A DNA stretch of 64,000 bases from a virus, in the IMG/VR virus record IMGVR_UViG_3300006735_000030, positions 4,803 through 68,802 of that record; one strand, written 5' to 3'. A model generated the notes under the pieces. That model ran no database searches. It was not told the origin of the DNA and was given only the letters and a program-made list of their open reading frames with translations. The translations under genes were made by a program, and so were the position numbers. The number at the start of each line of letters is the position of its first letter. The stretch's first letter is position 1. Shown here piece after piece: positions 4,497 to 47,121 of this stretch.

Positions 4497-5122
4497 CCGT
4501 ATAATCTCTCTATTCTAAATTGTTCTACATAACCAACACCAACTTTTGAACATTGGTAATTGGTATGAAATGATTTAATACTCTGTTCTTGAAAATACAA
4601 CTTATCTTTTTGTGAAGAGAATCCATCTCTAAGGTCTCGTATCTTAGAGTCCAATAACAAATCATCTATTTCAACATAGTAATTTGGAATCCACTCTTCT
4701 AATGTTGATGGTGTTCTATATGTTATTAGACCAGTACTAATTCCTCTCAACATAGCTTTTGATATGTGATTAACCATTCTATGTTCAAAGTGTGAATCGT
4801 GTTTTGGTAGAGATAATATAGCATCATAACCTTTTATATCAAAATTGTTTTCAAGATGATTAACCCAAAAATCTTCTGGACTATCTTTTACACAAGTAAA
4901 TTCTAAACAAGTACCATTAACATTAGTTAGTTTATCCCAAATCCATTGACATTCACCAAATCTCGAATTACCAGTAGTAACATCAAAGTCACCACCATTT
5001 GATAAAACTACTACATCAAATTGTGTATCACCACAACTTATCATAGAACCCAACACACCATATTCAGTATCATCTGGATGAGCTGATAGACATAAAACCT
5101 TATTTAAATTTAAAAACTTCAT
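4493..5122 (-). CDS. PIG-L/LmbE-family deacetylase
   Basis: SAHPDDTE and DSHFEH motifs. Confidence 0.85.
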   Translation of the reverse strand: MKFLNLNKVLCLSAHPDDTEYGVLGSMISCGDTQFDVVVLSNGGDFDVTTGNSRFGECQWIWDKLTNVNGTCLEFTCVKDSPEDFWVNHLENNFDIKGYDAILSLPKHDSHFEHRMVNHISKAMLRGISTGLITYRTPSTLEEWIPNYYVEIDDLLLDSKIRDLRDGFSSQKDKLYFQEQSIKSFHTNYQCSKVGVGYVEQFRIERLYG

Positions 5123-34334: not shown

Positions 34335-37091
34335 TTAGAAATTAACAGTAAGTCCTAAATTAAAACTTCTTGGTGTTCCAAGAAATACTTCAGCGTTATG
34401 AGCTAAGTGCATCTTATCACCATACCCATTGTACTTACTATTGTCAACGGCATCTTGAACATAAACATCGTCAAGTGCGTTAAATAAATGACCATGTAAA
34501 GTCATATCAAGTCCTGCCATTTTAGGTAACCTATAAGCTACGTGTATGTCCATCTTACCATAAGACGGGGTTTTCCATACTTGTGCTCTGTCAGCATCAC
34601 CTTCAACTTCACGACTATCTGGACTCCAATCAGAATAATGATTGTCGTACCATCTATATAGACCTTGGACACTCAATCCTTCAATTGGTTTGATTGTTAA
34701 ACCACCAACATAAGATGTCTGTGGCATATCACCAACTTTTAGATTGTTTAAAGCGTATTCATACTCAGTAGATGTTTGTCCAATGATTTGATTATCATCA
34801 TTGTATTCCATCTCTGTGTAGTCACCTTTAGCATCTCCATCAAAATACCAATCTCCAATACTAACGGCAACATCCAAGTCAACCATTTCATGTAGAGCGA
34901 CTTTAGACTCAATCTCGAAACCACTATGACTTTGGTTTACACCAGTCAAATAAATGATGTCTGTGTCACCTGAGTCACCTTGACCAGTCGTAACTGACTT
35001 TGTAAGGTTTCTGTCTTTCCATTGAGTGTTATAGTAACTACCTTTGATAGCAACTTTGTCACTTCTATATTCTCCACCAACTTCTGTAGATATGAATTTC
35101 TCATTGTCTGGGTTTGTGGATACATTCCCATCATAATCAATTACATTATCTAAGATTGGTGGTTTCTGTACGTAACCAGCATTAGCAAATGCAGATAATC
35201 TGTCATCAAGATTATATCTAGCTCCACCCTTTGCTTGAAAGGTTGTGATAGCAGGAGCTTCAACAAAATTATCAATCTTGTTTCCATCCTCATCTACATT
35301 AAGAGCGAAATGGTCTTCGTAAGTATATCCAATTGTAGATATACCACCCATACCATATAGATTTATCTTTTCAGTATCATATTTACCTTGTAGAAAAGCT
35401 CCTAACCAATTTACAGTAGTTTCGTTATGATACGCAATAATATCACCTAAACGAACAACTTTACCATCGGCCATATTGTCATCAGCGTAGTCTACATAGT
35501 AGTCTCCACCAAGTAAATCACGAACTTCTCTAGCGTGTTCTATACCAGCAGTTCTCCAATCAATACCAACTTGAACTTCAAGTTCATCTGAAACATCATA
35601 GTTCAATTTAGAAATTAAACCATAAGTATCTTGTCTATTGATTGAGTTTCTAAGGATACCTGTGGAACGATTTTCAACATCAGAGAACGCAGAATCTACA
35701 TTAGCAGAGTTCTGAGCTATCTCAGCATTCCAATCCCAAGTCCAAGGTGAACTTGCATACCAAGGGTTTCCTTCTATCGCGGGTGTCCTACTTACGCTAC
35801 CATAAGTACCAGTTCCTCCACCAGAACCACCACTCCAATATAGTACTGAACTTAACCTCATGTCTTCATTGATATCATAAAAATGATTCAAGTTAACAAG
35901 TGGTTTATGAAAGAAGTTTTCTCTTTCATTTAGGAAGTTAGAACTATACCTATCGGTTGTACGAGCTCCGTACATATACCAATATTGTTGACCTTTATAA
36001 TCTGGGTCAATTGGTGCAACGTTTTGGTTAAGGAATCTACCAGCCTCGTGTTCGAACTTTTCTCCTTCAACATAAGCAGAATCGTTGTATCCATCAATAC
36101 TACCTGCTAACTCTTGTGAATAAGTTGCGATATTCTGTTTATATAGATTCTGACCATGACGCTGTGGAGCACCAACAGCATACAACTCAAGTCTATGGTC
36201 ATCGTTCATCTGATAACTTGTTCCAAGATAGTAAGCCCAAGCGTCTGTCCATGTTCCATCTATAAAACCATCACCAGTTTTACGAACAATCGTTCCACTT
36301 ATTGCTAACTTATCATTTAACATAAGTCCTGAGTTATAATTCAAAGTAGATTTAAGGAATCCACCTTCACCTACTTCTTGTTTTACTTTACCACCCTTCT
36401 CGTGTTGAGCTGGGTCGGTAATTATGTTCATAGTTCCACCAATAGATGGTGTAGCTAGATTAACAGCTGAAAGACCTCTTTGCATCTGAATTGAGGTTGT
36501 AGCATCACCTACTCCATCCCAATTAGACCAATAGACCCATCCGTTCTCCATATCATTTTGGGGAACACCATTTATCATCACGGCCACGTTTCTTTGGTTA
36601 AATCCACGAACATTGATACGAGCATCACCCGCACCACCACCTTGACCAGTCGCATATACACTTGGTGTAGTATTAAGAATCATTGGAATATCTTGTGAAC
36701 CAAGACGTAATTCCATTTCTTCTTTATCTACAGTAGTGTAAGCAACAGGTGTCGTTTCATCAGCTCTTGAAGCAAGAACCTCAAGTGCTGACATTGCAAC
36801 GACATCAGTTTCTAAAGTGAAACTAACACTCGCTACAATATCCCCAACACTAACAGATTTAGTCTGGGTTATGTAACCAATGTAAGAAGCTGTCACATCA
36901 AAAGTACCAGTGCCAGTCTCAATAGTAAATTTACCTTCACTATCCGAGACCCCGCCTAAGTCTGTACCTTCAATAGTAACATTAGCTCCTACAAGTGGTT
37001 TATCGCCTTTACCAACGAATCCTGTAACGACTTGTCCGAAAACAAATCCGCTCATCATCACCAGTAAAGACATGAGATTACGATAATTCAT
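34335..37091 (-). CDS. TonB-dependent outer-membrane receptor with N-terminal carboxypeptidase-regulatory-like domain
   Basis: Signal peptide; PLVGANV...SYIGY; plug motif INVRGF...INGVP; C-terminal NALD..Y and PRSFNLGLTVNF (terminal Phe). Confidence 0.93.
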   Translation of the reverse strand: MNYRNLMSLLVMMSGFVFGQVVTGFVGKGDKPLVGANVTIEGTDLGGVSDSEGKFTIETGTGTFDVTASYIGYITQTKSVSVGDIVASVSFTLETDVVAMSALEVLASRADETTPVAYTTVDKEEMELRLGSQDIPMILNTTPSVYATGQGGGAGDARINVRGFNQRNVAVMINGVPQNDMENGWVYWSNWDGVGDATTSIQMQRGLSAVNLATPSIGGTMNIITDPAQHEKGGKVKQEVGEGGFLKSTLNYNSGLMLNDKLAISGTIVRKTGDGFIDGTWTDAWAYYLGTSYQMNDDHRLELYAVGAPQRHGQNLYKQNIATYSQELAGSIDGYNDSAYVEGEKFEHEAGRFLNQNVAPIDPDYKGQQYWYMYGARTTDRYSSNFLNERENFFHKPLVNLNHFYDINEDMRLSSVLYWSGGSGGGTGTYGSVSRTPAIEGNPWYASSPWTWDWNAEIAQNSANVDSAFSDVENRSTGILRNSINRQDTYGLISKLNYDVSDELEVQVGIDWRTAGIEHAREVRDLLGGDYYVDYADDNMADGKVVRLGDIIAYHNETTVNWLGAFLQGKYDTEKINLYGMGGISTIGYTYEDHFALNVDEDGNKIDNFVEAPAITTFQAKGGARYNLDDRLSAFANAGYVQKPPILDNVIDYDGNVSTNPDNEKFISTEVGGEYRSDKVAIKGSYYNTQWKDRNLTKSVTTGQGDSGDTDIIYLTGVNQSHSGFEIESKVALHEMVDLDVAVSIGDWYFDGDAKGDYTEMEYNDDNQIIGQTSTEYEYALNNLKVGDMPQTSYVGGLTIKPIEGLSVQGLYRWYDNHYSDWSPDSREVEGDADRAQVWKTPSYGKMDIHVAYRLPKMAGLDMTLHGHLFNALDDVYVQDAVDNSKYNGYGDKMHLAHNAEVFLGTPRSFNLGLTVNF

Positions 37092-42876: not shown

Positions 42877-43641
42877 TTACCGATTAAATAACTCGTCAAA
42901 TGCAGATGAAGCATCATCAACAGTAGTAGTTTCTTTCAGAGTCTTTTTAGTCTCTGTAGTTTCTACTGTTTCTTCTTCTCCACCTTCTTTGTTTTCTGGG
43001 TTTAACCACTCATTAAGAACGTTAGTAAGTTCATCATAACCAAGTTCGTTATAAACTTCGTTAAGATTAACTTGGTTCTCCAAGCTGTTTTCCATCAATT
43101 TAGAATCCTCTGATATAGGTGTTTGATTTGGTTTAACACGAATACCAGTGGTAGGAAATGATTTACCAGTTTCTTCTGCGGTCTTAAACTCTACAACAAC
43201 ATCACGACCATTGGTTGCATCTGAAATGTCACCATAGTCTGGGTCAGCGATTATAGATAGAAGTTCTTGGTATACAGTTTTACCAAAACCCCAAAATTTA
43301 ATACCATCGTTCTCGGCTCCACGAACTAATACGGGTGCAAAAGTTCTCATCTTAGCTTCCAACTTTTTACCAAGTCTCCAATCGTCACGATTACCACTTG
43401 ATTTCAATTTGTCGGCAAACTCTTCGATAGGGTCTGGTCTTCCAAAAGAAATTGGTGATAAGTAAGTACGTCCACCTAAGTCATAATGAAAATACAACTC
43501 AATAAAGGGTGTAGATTTATTATACTTGAATGGTACTATTCTTACGATTTGTTTTCCTGGTGATGGTTTCCAAAGATTATTGGAACGTTGATTAGTAGTT
43601 TGTAACTGGTCTAAACGTTTACGTATTGCATCAATATCCAT
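42877..43641 (-). CDS. Single-stranded DNA-binding protein (gp32-like)
   Basis: WKP..G...VRIVP, PF..L.FHY, WGFGKTVY, acidic tail ending AFDELF; replication context. Confidence 0.78.
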   Translation of the reverse strand: MDIDAIRKRLDQLQTTNQRSNNLWKPSPGKQIVRIVPFKYNKSTPFIELYFHYDLGGRTYLSPISFGRPDPIEEFADKLKSSGNRDDWRLGKKLEAKMRTFAPVLVRGAENDGIKFWGFGKTVYQELLSIIADPDYGDISDATNGRDVVVEFKTAEETGKSFPTTGIRVKPNQTPISEDSKLMENSLENQVNLNEVYNELGYDELTNVLNEWLNPENKEGGEEETVETTETKKTLKETTTVDDASSAFDELFNR

Positions 43642-43705
43642 TTTATATTCTCCTAATTTATTATTTGTTAATTATTAATCAAAGATGTAACCTTGATTTA
43701 TAATA

Positions 43706-43734
43706 TATATAACCTTGTTAATTAAAACGTTCAA
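43706..43734 (-). promoter_or_regulatory. sigma70-like promoter of SSB operon
   Basis: TTGAAC-17 nt-TATATA; 19-bp AAAATAGCTTGAACGTTTT identical to the promoter at 44269-44297. Confidence 0.6.
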
Positions 43735-43753
43735 GCTATTTTATGTTGGCAAT

Positions 43754-43823
43754 AAAAAAAGGGTTCGGTAGTTTTTTAAGTTTTAATATAGTGGAAACTA
43801 AAAATCGGTTGAACCCTTTTTTT
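43754..43823 (-). terminator. Terminator downstream of large ncRNA
   Basis: A7-GGGUUC...GAACCC-U7 inverted repeat with inner UAGUUU/AAACUA stem. Confidence 0.65.
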
Positions 43824-43828
43824 AAAAT

Positions 43829-44242
43829 TTGAAAATTTGGGGATGTGAGATTAACGATTACTCACAACTTTCAGCTTAGATTTTTTTTACCTTGTACCTA
43901 ACACTCATCAGTTACGATGATTCTTCTCAAAGTGGTTAACTTCATTGAAGTGAGTACAACCTCTGTGTTATTACCTTATCTCTCTAAGATTAGATTATTC
44001 GGTCATGAAGTTGGATTTCAGTTTTACCCTTACCAACAACAAGGTCAAAGAATCGTGTTCTTTATTTATTCTGAAAGTACATTCCGAGTCATATGTCTAT
44101 GAATCACTTACAACCCACAATATCTAGCAGGTGGATAGTCACCACAACTTCTCGGTAGATTACCTTATGAGCTTCAATGGTCACTCATTATTCGGTCAAT
44201 CCCATAAAGAGTTAATTACTCTCTTTACTTTCTAATTTTCAA
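43829..44242 (-). ncRNA. Large structured non-coding RNA, ROOL-like
   Basis: No credible ORF; own promoter and terminator; closing stem UUGAAAAUU/AAUUUUCAA, UGGGAU/AUCCC pairing, several hairpins; duplicated UGACCGAAUA...AAGGUAA module. Confidence 0.7.
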
Positions 44243-44268
44243 TTTGTCAATAAACTTGTATATATATA

Positions 44269-44297
44269 TGTATACACTAAAAAACCAAAACGTTCAA
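44269..44297 (-). promoter_or_regulatory. sigma70-like promoter of large ncRNA
   Basis: TTGAAC-17 nt-TATACA. Confidence 0.6.
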
Positions 44298-44308
44298 GCT
44301 ATTTTTAA

Positions 44309-44644
44309 TTATTTAAATAATATTGGTAATTGGTAGTTTACTTTTACTGGTATTCCATTTTGTTTAGCTGGTTCGAATTTAATTGCCATAACTCTGTCTA
44401 TTATAGCATCATTTAGAGCTATATTAAATGTATCCATAATGTATGGTTCTACAATTCTACCATTTTCATCTACTGTAAATTTTACTAAAACCTTTCCTCT
44501 AAGTTCAGAAGTATCTATTTTTGAAATATGGTCATAACTTAAATGAAATGGTTTTTTCATTATTGGTCGTTGTTGATTCCCACCCGTTGGTAAGTCTTGG
44601 GCTACCAACAAGCCCATTAGTAATAAACACAAAAGGTGCCTCAT
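44309..44644 (-). CDS. TonB C-terminal domain protein (secreted or anchored)
   Basis: GGAG RBS then MRHLLCLLLMGLLVA signal; GKVLVKFTVDENGRI...KFEPAKQNGIPVKV...PILF. Confidence 0.82.
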   Translation of the reverse strand: MRHLLCLLLMGLLVAQDLPTGGNQQRPIMKKPFHLSYDHISKIDTSELRGKVLVKFTVDENGRIVEPYIMDTFNIALNDAIIDRVMAIKFEPAKQNGIPVKVNYQLPILFK

Positions 44645-44714
44645 ATTGTTCTCCGCAATTGATTGATTAACTCCTTTCGTCTTCAAAAATATATATAAAC
44701 ATTTTTTAAAAAAT

Positions 44715-45341: not shown

Positions 45342-45763
45342 AATACTTCTATCTCTGTACCTATACCTCTTTTATCGTGGTCTGTTCCAACTACTATTGT
45401 ATAGTATCCTGGGTCTACATCAGATGTCCATTCAGTTCTGTAAAGTTTCCAAACATATGTTTCTGTTCGTTCTCTACCATCACGAAATCTATCTAATGCT
45501 AGTGGTGTTTGGTGAACTAATTTACCATTGAAATCAAACATATATAATCTTGTTTTATCCCTCTGTACTTTGTATCTAATCTTTACACAAGGGCCACCTT
45601 TTCTGTCATAAGCTCTCCAAGCTACTATCGGTGTTTCATCAAAATATTCCATTGATGGTGGTTTTACTTTTGGTATTTCATTTGGGTCTGGTCTGAAAAA
45701 CACATACCCAAAACATAAAGCTATTCCAATGTATAGTAAGTATTCTTTTATTTGTTCATTCAT
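45338..45763 (-). CDS. Membrane-anchored protein with FlgD-like Ig domain
   Basis: N-terminal TM helix; LYMFDFNGKLV...W...VDPGYYTIVV pattern. Confidence 0.5.
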   Translation of the reverse strand: MNEQIKEYLLYIGIALCFGYVFFRPDPNEIPKVKPPSMEYFDETPIVAWRAYDRKGGPCVKIRYKVQRDKTRLYMFDFNGKLVHQTPLALDRFRDGRERTETYVWKLYRTEWTSDVDPGYYTIVVGTDHDKRGIGTEIEVL

Positions 45764-46203
45764 TATTGTGCTATATACCTCACTGGTTCTTCTGCTAATT
45801 CAAATGATGTAGAGTCATATGTGTAATAATAAATCTCATCGTCAGGTCTTTGATGAAAGATAGCAGGTTCTCCTGCATCAATCAAACTAAACTGCCATTC
45901 ATTATCTTCATCAGGTACACCCAACTCTAAATTTATTTTCAAATTACGGGTTCTACCAAATGTTGTTAATGGATTGAATGGCCAATTTTCAGTTCCAGTC
46001 TCTAATAGTTTATCACTTGCATATTGTTCACATCCTGCCCATATTGTGTTTACTGTAGTCTTTTCAGCTCTTACTGACGCTTTATGTAATACATGAGTCA
46101 TCTTAGGTACTGCAACAGCGGCTAATATTCCTAAGATGACCATAACCATTACTAATTCTACTAAAGAAAAACCTTCATTCATTTTCTCTTTCAGTATTTT
46201 CAT
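45763..46203 (-). CDS. Type IV pilin / pseudopilin-like protein
   Basis: G|FSLVELVMVMVILGILAAVAVP class III signal with E5. Confidence 0.9.
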   Translation of the reverse strand: MKILKEKMNEGFSLVELVMVMVILGILAAVAVPKMTHVLHKASVRAEKTTVNTIWAGCEQYASDKLLETGTENWPFNPLTTFGRTRNLKINLELGVPDEDNEWQFSLIDAGEPAIFHQRPDDEIYYYTYDSTSFELAEEPVRYIAQ

Positions 46204-46214
46204 TATTCTTTATC

Positions 46215-46679
46215 CTAATCCAAATCAGGTCTATATACTACCTGGTCTGGTTGATATGGTGGATTGGAATACCCAATCTCACCTGTTGTTGAATTATAAG
46301 TCCATATTGCTAGACTATCTTCTTTTCTTCTATGAACAATTCGATTTTTGAAATCATTACTCTTATCAGCAGTAAATATCCAATCACTATCGTCCATTTC
46401 TTTCATCATAACGGTTCCACTTTTGTCGTAATATTGTGGTACTTTATTTAAAGCATCAAAAGGATTATCTGGCCACTTCATAACACCATTGTCAATAAAC
46501 TCTTCTTGACTATAAGTATCTAAAGCGGCGACTAAATTAACAAGTACTCCTTGTTCAGAAGCCGCTTCAGATTGTCTTACGATATTAGTGAATCTCGGAA
46601 TGGAGACTGCGGCTAATATACCAATGATTACCATTACCATAATAAGTTCAACTAAGGTAAATCCGTTTTTATTGTCCAC
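46215..46679 (-). CDS. Type IV pilin / pseudopilin-like protein
   Basis: G|FTLVELIMVMVIIGILAAVSIP. Confidence 0.9.
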   Translation of the reverse strand: MDNKNGFTLVELIMVMVIIGILAAVSIPRFTNIVRQSEAASEQGVLVNLVAALDTYSQEEFIDNGVMKWPDNPFDALNKVPQYYDKSGTVMMKEMDDSDWIFTADKSNDFKNRIVHRRKEDSLAIWTYNSTTGEIGYSNPPYQPDQVVYRPDLD

Positions 46680-47121
46680 TTACCAGACTTTCTCTACTGC
46701 CTAATGTACCAGTAGTATCTGTGTCTGTTCCTGTGTTGATTCCAGCATCATATTCCCACTTCCACCTCGTGTTATCAGAACGTTGGTGAGTAATATATGC
46801 GGGGTCACCATCCACAAATGTCCACTCATTGTCGGTATCAGCATTTGTACCATCAGTTGTGTATGTTTGTGGTTTGTCCTTTAAAGCGTCAAATGGATTA
46901 TCTGGCCATATAGCTCTTCCACTATCTATGAGTTTATGAACTCCGTAGTTTTCAAGTGCTACACTAATATTACTTATGACTGCATCTTCGGAAGCTTCTT
47001 CAGCTTTCTCGATAGTCTCTAAGTATCGTGGAATTGCAACAGCTGATAATACTCCTAAGATTATCATCACCATTATCAATTCGATTAATGTAAAACCATC
47101 ATTTGATTTTTTTATTTTCAT
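46669..47121 (-). CDS. Type IV pilin / pseudopilin-like protein
   Basis: G|FTLIELIMVMIILGVLSAVAIP. Confidence 0.9.
   Translation of the reverse strand: MKIKKSNDGFTLIELIMVMIILGVLSAVAIPRYLETIEKAEEASEDAVISNISVALENYGVHKLIDSGRAIWPDNPFDALKDKPQTYTTDGTNADTDNEWTFVDGDPAYITHQRSDNTRWKWEYDAGINTGTDTDTTGTLGSRESLVSGQ

Follow-up and report, generated by a model that had tools for sequence, protein, structure and literature searches.

A stand-alone manA-family RNA of nested double architecture in an uncultured marine phage

The RNA family manA was described in 2010 as a marine and cyanophage riboswitch candidate (in the part of that report available to us; Weinberg et al. 2010, PMC2864571). Its structure was updated in Rfam release 14.3, and the accessible portions of the remaining literature mention a single manA in S-CREM1 and, in the R2R paper, unspecified "modular structures" in some manA RNAs. 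The available part of a 2026 cryo-EM preprint (10.64898/2026.07.01.735769) reports manA RNAs as protein-free closed 8-, 10- and 60-mers built from pentamers, in which the contacts are the kissing loops L5-L7′ and L8-L9′ in the pentamers, or L3-L8′ plus a GNRA-receptor contact. Here, we describe a structured noncoding RNA of approximately 410 nucleotides (nt) on the minus strand of a 64,000-nt stretch of virus DNA (hereafter, the window; positions 4,803 to 68,802 of the IMG/VR record IMGVR_UViG_3300006735_000030), which belongs to the manA family and contains two manA cores in one nested fold.

The RNA resembles manA in its UGAC.GAAUAA and UAAGGU strands, its three-hairpin junction with a GUGGUG-type loop, its P1, P8 and P9 helices, its complementary loops L8 and L9 and its marine phage setting. 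It differs in that two cores share a fold of approximately 390 nt, in which a second core, without P1 and L8, lies enclosed by P1 and the lower P8 of the first; in that a terminator of its own ends the RNA and a separate promoter serves the next gene, so that it does not lie in a 5′ untranslated region (UTR); and in that the phage is not a T4-like cyanophage. ROOL and GOLLD RNAs, which are reported to form protein-free multimeric cages, are likewise phage-associated or prophage-associated, stand-alone and several hundred nt long, but the present RNA has no Rfam match to them and has another fold and other conserved motifs. In the tandem glycine riboswitch, two homologous domains in one transcript make inter-domain contacts and act as serial aptamers for one expression platform, whereas here a stem of one module houses the other, and there is no evident expression platform. 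Permuted tmRNA and the permuted hammerhead types keep the same helices in another 5′-to-3′ order; the presumably permuted copy described here differs from them in sitting inside an unpermuted copy of the same fold.

All 4227 families of Rfam 15 were searched with cmscan, over the whole window at the gathering score and over positions 43600-44400 at E ≤ 10. The sole match at the gathering score in the 64 kb was manA (RF01745; 43840-44038, minus strand; 73.4 bits against a cut-off of 55.2; E = 9.1e-17). A second, weak manA match covered the upstream half of the RNA, module A, and stayed below the cut-off (16.3 or 28.4 bits by the bounding chosen; E = 8.9e-6 at 28.4 bits). The 73.4-bit match is a chimera of a hairpin termed hpB0, the core of the downstream module B and the 3′ end (terminal hairpin) of module A. 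It had no P1, and the P8 pairing forced by the model was flagged as noncanonical (vvvvv), because the partner strands lie upstream in the nested architecture; the weak match borrowed the following hairpin, hpB0, as its terminal hairpin. Similarity to DUF2693-RNA (19.4 bits, E = 0.09-0.26) was not significant.

An initial annotation, made from the letters of the window, had proposed a compact ROOL-like RNA on the basis of motifs taken to resemble ROOL, and a new class should no ROOL match be found. No covariance-model match to ROOL, GOLLD or OLE was obtained, either at the gathering score in the whole window or at E ≤ 10 in positions 43600-44400. Both features read as ROOL-like, UGACYGAAUA and the UAAUC..AAUC terminal loop, are manA consensus positions in the cmscan alignments. 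The ROOL label therefore fails, and the new class proposed in its place gives way to a known family: the RNA is a manA RNA with an undescribed architecture and not a new class.

Each defining element of manA was compared with the two modules. The junction strands that flank a hairpin, UGAC.GAAUAA and UAAGGU, with a closing helix of 2-3 base pairs (bp), occur twice as exact repeats. One is the 12-nt repeat already annotated, found exactly at 43994-44005 and 44187-44198, and the other is 10 nt long (43970-43979 and 44159-44168; AUAAGGUAAU in the RNA). The three-hairpin junction (P5-P7) with a GUGGUG-type first loop is present in both modules (L5 is UGUGGUG in module A and GUUGUA in module B). 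The closing helix P1 occurs once and encloses both modules, module B having no P1 of its own, and the P8 stem-loop and P9 hairpin with complementary loops were found in module A, module B having no L8. The duplicated structural module that had been noticed from the letters thus corresponds to two manA cores. The RNA departs from its Rfam type (Cis-reg), an annotation of context and not of fold: it is not in a 5′ UTR position, as a terminator and a second promoter copy precede the next gene, which encodes a gp32-type protein.

Module A has the canonical manA order with all elements (P0, P1, junction strands, three-hairpin junction, P8 and P9). Between its apical P8 hairpin and strand a′ there is an insertion made up of strand b, a hairpin, a UUCA linker, a second full core, strand b′ and an A-rich linker, and the a-a′ helix joins the end of the module A core to the base of the last hairpin, P9 (Table 1). 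We show that module A is a complete manA with the core of module B inserted into its P8 stem and closed by b-b′. Module B probably represents a circular permutation of manA, in which the chain is open at the apex of P8 and closed at the site that P1 would otherwise occupy. It is read as permuted because b′ directly follows AGGU, as the 5′ strand of P8 follows gGu, and b directly precedes "U + hairpin", as the 3′ strand of P8 precedes P9. The 4-nt UUCA linker replaces P1 in module B, and hpB0 could equally be called P0-like, as in the 2010 alignment. The two-core architecture, nested through P1 and P8 with one kissing-loop set, appears to be new: no double or nested manA was found described in the manA literature searched, although the structure lines of the 2010 alignment and the supplements, which lie outside that scope, could describe longer forms.

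Homologues were collected from uncultured marine phage contigs. The gp32-type protein has at least 598 relatives in IMG/VR, and the best 80 loci were fetched; the RNA was present in 20 of these 80 (nhmmer). The Rfam manA model matched 18 of the first 50 records, nine of them above the cut-off and five of the 18 with two adjacent matches. A consensus DNA pattern for module B gave 29 stretches, all 29 with the element (one cut off at the contig end), whereas an earlier, looser pattern was mostly unspecific (89 stretches; manA in 12 of 49 records; the element in only three of the 80 loci fetched from that search). Removal of duplicates left 22 distinct sequences, forming two main groups plus intermediates (L005, L025, L105, L122 and L197), which were aligned twice (A1 and A2). 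A relative of 216 kb that is complete according to CheckV (L196) carries this one locus and no other manA, and the locus itself found no match in a blastn search of 50,697 phage records.

A hand-built structure of 113 pairs, including a 4-bp loop-loop pairing, was counted on A2 and compared with controls in which the partners were slid by 1-3 columns and with 500 shuffles. Cells were paired in 88.7% of cases against 37-47% with slid partners, and 67 of the 113 pairs changed on both sides against 13-33. No shuffle equalled the observed value for four of the five measures; for the further pair types, 20 of 500 did so. Covariation among homologues, which had been suggested as a check on the initial annotation, exceeded what chance gives. 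RNAalifold on A1, unprompted, returned a 5-bp P1 (GGGAU/AUCCC) and a 6-bp b-b′ helix (CCUUGU/ACAAGG). P1 was 100% paired in all 22 sequences, with two covarying pairs and with the variants GGAAU/AUUCC (one sequence) and GGGGU/ACCCC (nine sequences). The b-b′ helix was 93.5% paired, four of its seven pairs changing on both sides (CCUUGU/ACAAGG, CUUCAC/GUGAAG, CCUCUU/AAGAGG and CUUCAU/AUGAAG). The a-a′ helix was added by eye; when chosen windows were folded as duplexes sequence by sequence, it was an 8-bp duplex in 22 of 22 (two with one mismatch), in 11 sequence variants. The single-sequence minimum free energy (MFE) structure recovered a-a′, b-b′ and the outer closure, P1.

Within the modules, the small P2 helix (2-3 bp) covaries in both, as AC/GU, CC/GG and GU/AC in module A. 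P4 of module B was 99.2% paired, with five of six pairs changing on both sides. P4 of module A was 64% paired in the MAFFT alignment, and the weaker parts of that module, P4, P5 and P6, ranged from 57 to 87%. The three hairpins named in the initial annotation all exist, with compensatory changes in homologues: GUAAAGAG/CUCUUUAU is P0, CAUC-GUAACU-GAUG is P7 of module B and GUGAG-UAAUCGUUAAU-CUCAC is P9. The annotated noncoding RNA of approximately 410 nt is thus borne out as a stand-alone structured RNA with a covarying fold and its own terminator.

Table 1. Positions in the window of the RNA, its structural elements and the surrounding features
Feature	Coordinates	Strand	Basis or remark
Whole structured RNA, leader to tail strand of outer AU-rich pairing, ~410 nt	43831..44240	-	Alignments A1/A2, structure counts, MFE
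P0, 5′ hairpin (GUAAAGAG...CUCUUUAU)	44204..44228	-	99.3% of cells paired, 4/8 pairs change on both sides; first hairpin of manA model
P1 5′ strand GGGAU	44199..44203	-	Pairs with 43840-43844, encloses both modules
P1 3′ strand AUCCC	43840..43844	-	Partner of 44199-44203
Module A core: UGACCGAAUAA, P3 hairpin, UAAGGUAAU, P4 junction with P5 (loop UGUGGUG), P6, P7 (loop GACA)	44083..44198	-	manA alignment, 28.4 bits
Strand a (ACUUUCAG), 5′ strand of module A lower P8	44071..44078	-	Pairs with 43867-43874
Strand a′ (CUGAAAGU)	43867..43874	-	Partner of strand a
Apical P8 hairpin of module A, loop L8 CACGA	44047..44063	-	Aligned by cmscan to manA apical P8 hairpin
Strand b ACCUUGU	44039..44045	-	Pairs with 43889-43895, encloses module B
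Strand b′ ACAAGGU	43889..43895	-	Partner of strand b
hpB0 hairpin (GUUGG-18 nt-CCAAC), then 4-nt linker UUCA in place of P1	44010..44037	-	82.7% paired; in cmscan, P0 of strong match or terminal hairpin of module A
Module B core: UGACCGAAUAA, P3, UAAGGUAAU, P4 junction with P5 (GUUGUA), P6 (UUAACCA), P7 (GUAACU)	43899..44005	-	Centre of 73.4-bit match
P9 terminal hairpin, loop L9 UAAUCGUUAAU	43845..43865	-	100% paired, 3 pairs change on both sides
Putative promoter: TTGAAC (44297-44292), 17-nt spacer, TATACA (44274-44269)	44269..44297	-	Read by eye
Second promoter-block copy TTGAAC-17-TATATA, in front of gp32	43706..43734	-	40-nt repeat
Intrinsic-terminator-like hairpin, 14-bp stem and U-run	43746..43824	-	-18.6 kcal/mol, z = -5.07, 0/200 shuffles as good
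Upstream gene, small 125-aa protein with TonB C-terminal domain	44309..44686	-	Pfam TonB_C, E = 3.9e-9
Downstream gene, gp32-type single-stranded DNA-binding protein	42877..43641	-	Pfam gp32, E = 1.7e-10; PHROG 1192, E = 1.3e-15

The locus also has the properties of an independent gene. The initial annotation had described an interval free of open reading frames (ORFs) with its own promoter and terminator. The interval holds no credible ORF, but short frames of 61, 40 and 34 amino acids (aa) exist, each on the plus strand. The terminator was confirmed as a 14-bp-stemmed hairpin with a U-run (Table 1). A 40-nt direct repeat (43703-43742 and 44266-44305; 78% identity; 563 bp apart) holds the -35-like and -10-like hexamers and brackets the RNA with its terminator; insertion or copying of the cassette seems to have duplicated the promoter. 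Neither of the sites used here, promoter or terminator, was listed by the consensus scans, the hairpin loop exceeding the limit of the terminator tool. The exact 15-mer promoter box occurs in the window only at these two sites; as a phage-wide promoter motif it was rejected, because its seven matches at ≤3 mismatches were close to chance (mean 2.6, maximum 7). In seven relatives (L004, L006, L007 and L009-L012), the RNA is immediately preceded by a TTGAACGTT box.

Relatives carry a hairpin of other sequence in the place of the terminator. The interior of the terminator hairpin, 43775-43800 on the minus strand (UUUUAGUUUCCAC; also seen in L048, L051 and L041), shows conservation across group 1 and part of group 2, although the outer stems differ in sequence. 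One subgroup (L013-L015, L033 and L035) has no recognisable terminator after the RNA. In its place there are approximately 240 nt without an ORF of at least 40 aa (L014:2003-2242, and the same place in the other four), followed by a Cys-rich ORF of 56 aa; this stretch could be a further RNA module. An apparent ribosome-binding site (RBS) and ATG after the RNA in L013-L015 was rejected as a gene start, as it opens a frame of two codons only.

Neighbouring genes vary as well. Among the 57 RNA-free loci with a measurable gap upstream of gp32, the gap was 84-132 nt. In L010, the RNA lies between two methyltransferase-like ORFs (156-1226 and 1803-2417, the downstream one of 204 aa), 800 nt before gp32; one of the two has an NPPF motif, read by eye, and the TonB_C and gp32 genes do not flank the RNA there. 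The sequence before gp32 is a site at which gene cassettes vary. A mobile, self-contained RNA gene accounts for the presence and absence among relatives and for the varying flanking genes better than a riboswitch dedicated to one gene would. Transcription of the RNA seems to begin at a promoter of its own and to stop at its own terminator, without dependence on gp32.

Transcription, also among the checks that had been suggested, was examined in sequencing runs. Of 24 runs listed as containing some of a 1061-nt stretch that includes the RNA, 21 are recorded as RNA, from 18 studies; four, from four studies, were examined. Marine metatranscriptome contigs covered 43841-44224 in all four of these runs, which were chosen for holding the sequence, with summed depths of approximately 70-500 against 0-25 in the flanks. 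Positions 44252-44323 had no contig in any of the four. Many variant letters in the contigs indicate that relatives were also present. Contig ends lay at 43841, and contigs ran into the Illumina adapter at 44218 (in the P0 loop), 43875 and 43882 (just 5′ of strand a′). These positions may hint at RNA ends or cleavage, and many fragments may stop at the adapter-joined ones, through cleavage or reverse-transcription stops.

Loops L8 and L9 of module A were complementary over 3-4 nt in 16 of 17 sequences in an automatic test (shuffled mean 2.4, maximum 7), and in the 17th (L105) a GCGA/UCGC complementarity was seen by eye. The variants were ACGA/UCGU, GCGA/UCGC, AUGA/UCAU and GCC/GGC. The control across classes was imperfect: because the CGAU/AUCG part is shared, matches were also seen in 64 of 210 cross pairs, and the covarying positions are accordingly few. 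The same complementarity is present in the Rfam manA consensus and in the seed rows seen of the 2010 alignment, that is, in ordinary manA RNAs. With the loop numbering mapped onto the Rfam consensus, L8-L9 of module A would be the contact that holds manA cages together; the mapping was made because the GNRA loop on the second hairpin of the junction agrees with L6 and because L8 and L9 are complementary. As the L5/L7 complementarity is invariant or absent and the loops of module B deviate, support extends to only one of the two pentamer contacts that the preprint names. A cross-module pairing of GUGGU in L5 of module A with ACCAC in L6 of module B, seen by eye, was possible in group 1 and not in group 2, the other loops being invariant, and was dropped.

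By analogy with the single-module manA RNAs, the RNA may self-assemble through L8-L9 of module A, a mechanism to which we give somewhat less than even odds. L8 and L9 would then kiss between molecules to yield closed homo-oligomers, and two cores per protomer would give a geometry unlike that of the published 10-mers and 60-mers. The idea of a protein-free multimer, which the initial annotation had reached by way of ROOL, loses that route, but it is taken up again by the assemblies that the available part of the 2026 preprint reports for manA RNAs. A more far-reaching proposal is that the RNA is a natural covalent dimer of a cage-forming RNA, its cores fused end to end through their P8 stems with one L8-L9 kissing pair kept, that it programmes a closed RNA-only assembly unlike the 8-, 10- and 60-mers and that the phage produces this particle during infection as a working compartment or scaffold; this is speculative and, taken as a whole, unlikely.

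Taken together, we favour, with a probability of roughly 0.6, a stand-alone manA-family RNA of nested double architecture, which may self-assemble like single-module manA RNAs. Several points weigh against this explanation. In the fold, a-a′ was only 73.9% paired on A2, in which MAFFT misaligns group 2, so that its presence in all 22 sequences rests on the chosen windows, and the paired ends of the initial annotation held in part, as an AU-rich leader/tail pairing of 5-9 bp is possible in most homologues but is weak, with only approximately 80% of cells paired and a shifting register. The 22 sequences belong to two main groups with a few intermediates, so that many double changes were inherited from few events. 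The promoter was read by eye only and was missed by the promoter scan. The metatranscriptome data cover the RNA but consist of contigs that give no strand, ends or level, DNA carry-over is possible and one contig spans the RNA, the terminator and the sequence down to 43640, the start of gp32. As for assembly, the loop numbers L5-L9 of the preprint were mapped onto the Rfam consensus by inference, oligomerisation is extrapolated from one preprint, in which manA RNAs of a single module were folded in vitro with 10 mM Mg, and module B has no L8 and a noncanonical L9.

Alternative explanations differ in how much of this evidence they share. A monomeric phage RNA, produced early in infection to serve as a scaffold, decoy or sponge that binds protein or RNA, and forming multimers in vitro only, would also fit the structure and the independent-gene evidence; the A-rich linker with its invariant AAAUC..AG and the two invariant junction cores are possible binding sites, and the arguments for a biological role of manA assemblies in the part of the preprint available (10.64898/2026.07.01.735769) are structural only. 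Against it, L8 and L9 covary and so pair, and in the solved single-module RNAs, as far as the available text describes them, they pair between molecules, although an intramolecular L8-L9 pseudoknot is possible in the present RNA. We regard the monomer as an unlikely alternative. Less probable still is a cis-regulatory element in which two tandem ligand-sensing aptamers, like those of the tandem glycine riboswitch, control read-through of the terminator into gp32. It would agree with the original proposal of manA as a 5′ UTR riboswitch candidate (available part of PMC2864571), with the location of the RNA and gp32 on one strand, the RNA first and a terminator in between, with the contig that bridges all three and with the subgroup lacking a recognisable terminator. 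However, gp32 keeps its own copy of the promoter block 3′ of the terminator, RNA-free relatives have gp32 behind a gap of just 84-132 nt and other genes follow the RNA elsewhere (the 204-aa methyltransferase-like ORF in L010 and the 56-aa ORF 240 nt off in L014). In addition, the 3′ end of the fold is locked in P1 and the tail pairing, with no alternative pairing with the terminator, and the RBS and ATG of the subgroup lead to two codons.

Two further readings concern the fold itself. That two independent manA RNAs lie in simple tandem, each folding alone, might be concluded from the two adjacent full-length Rfam matches, which recur in five of the 18 related records with a match; yet the strong match has no P1 and a broken P8, the weak one takes its last hairpin from the sequence that follows, and P1, a-a′ and b-b′ pair across both units and covary, so that this arrangement is very improbable. 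For a compact ROOL-like RNA, there is only the resemblance proposed in the initial annotation and a size of several hundred nt, set against the lack of a match among 4227 families and the fact that the manA consensus explains all of the motifs cited for it; its probability is close to nil.

The nested architecture of the manA-family RNA also bears on the family itself. In the 2010 seed (supplement file 4, manA.sto, parts 119-120; PMC2864571), five of the approximately 37 rows, among those examined, have a P1-less form (module B plus the terminal hairpin) of approximately 200 nt. With a gap at the expected position of the P1 5′ strand, these five rows resemble 3′ portions of nested double manA RNAs, one half of which would thus have stood in the seed since 2010, apparently as a unit of approximately 200 nt; the seed may hold truncated members. 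This suggests that some P1-less entries of approximately 200 nt may be fragments of longer RNAs, which bears on how the family model is built. The insertion of a second core in the first means that the manA fold tolerates nesting and, if module B is permuted as proposed, circular permutation, and the nested RNA is a ready-made construct for asking how protomer valency sets the geometry of RNA cages. With its own terminator, patchy presence and changing neighbours, the locus shows manA clearly in the role of an independent gene.

The window belongs to a 68.8-kb virus record estimated by CheckV to be 37% complete, with a GC content of approximately 32-35%. The source is an uncultured marine phage of large size (approximately 216 kb). 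On the minus strand, the order is the TonB_C gene, a promoter-like block, approximately 430 nt without a credible ORF, the hairpin with its U-run, the second promoter-like block and the gp32-type gene, followed by UvsX, a 5′-3′ exonuclease, DnaB and a class II ribonucleotide reductase. No tRNA genes were found within the 64 kb. The nearest cultured phages by gp32 are Microcystis phage Mel-JY01 (53%) and the Flavobacterium immuto phages (40%), which have the gp32-RecA-exonuclease-helicase order in common and only approximately 110 nt ahead of gp32. A manA search of the complete genomes of Mel-JY01 and one immuto phage found none (0 of 2), a weak result because the search had no working positive control.

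Host-envelope-like genes lie at 34335-37091, 44309-44686 and 45763-47121, all on the minus strand. There are three pilin-like proteins in a row with N-terminal methylation motifs. A protein of 918 aa carries CarboxypepD_reg and TonB-dependent-receptor Plug domains, and this SusC-like domain pair hints at a Bacteroidota-type host.

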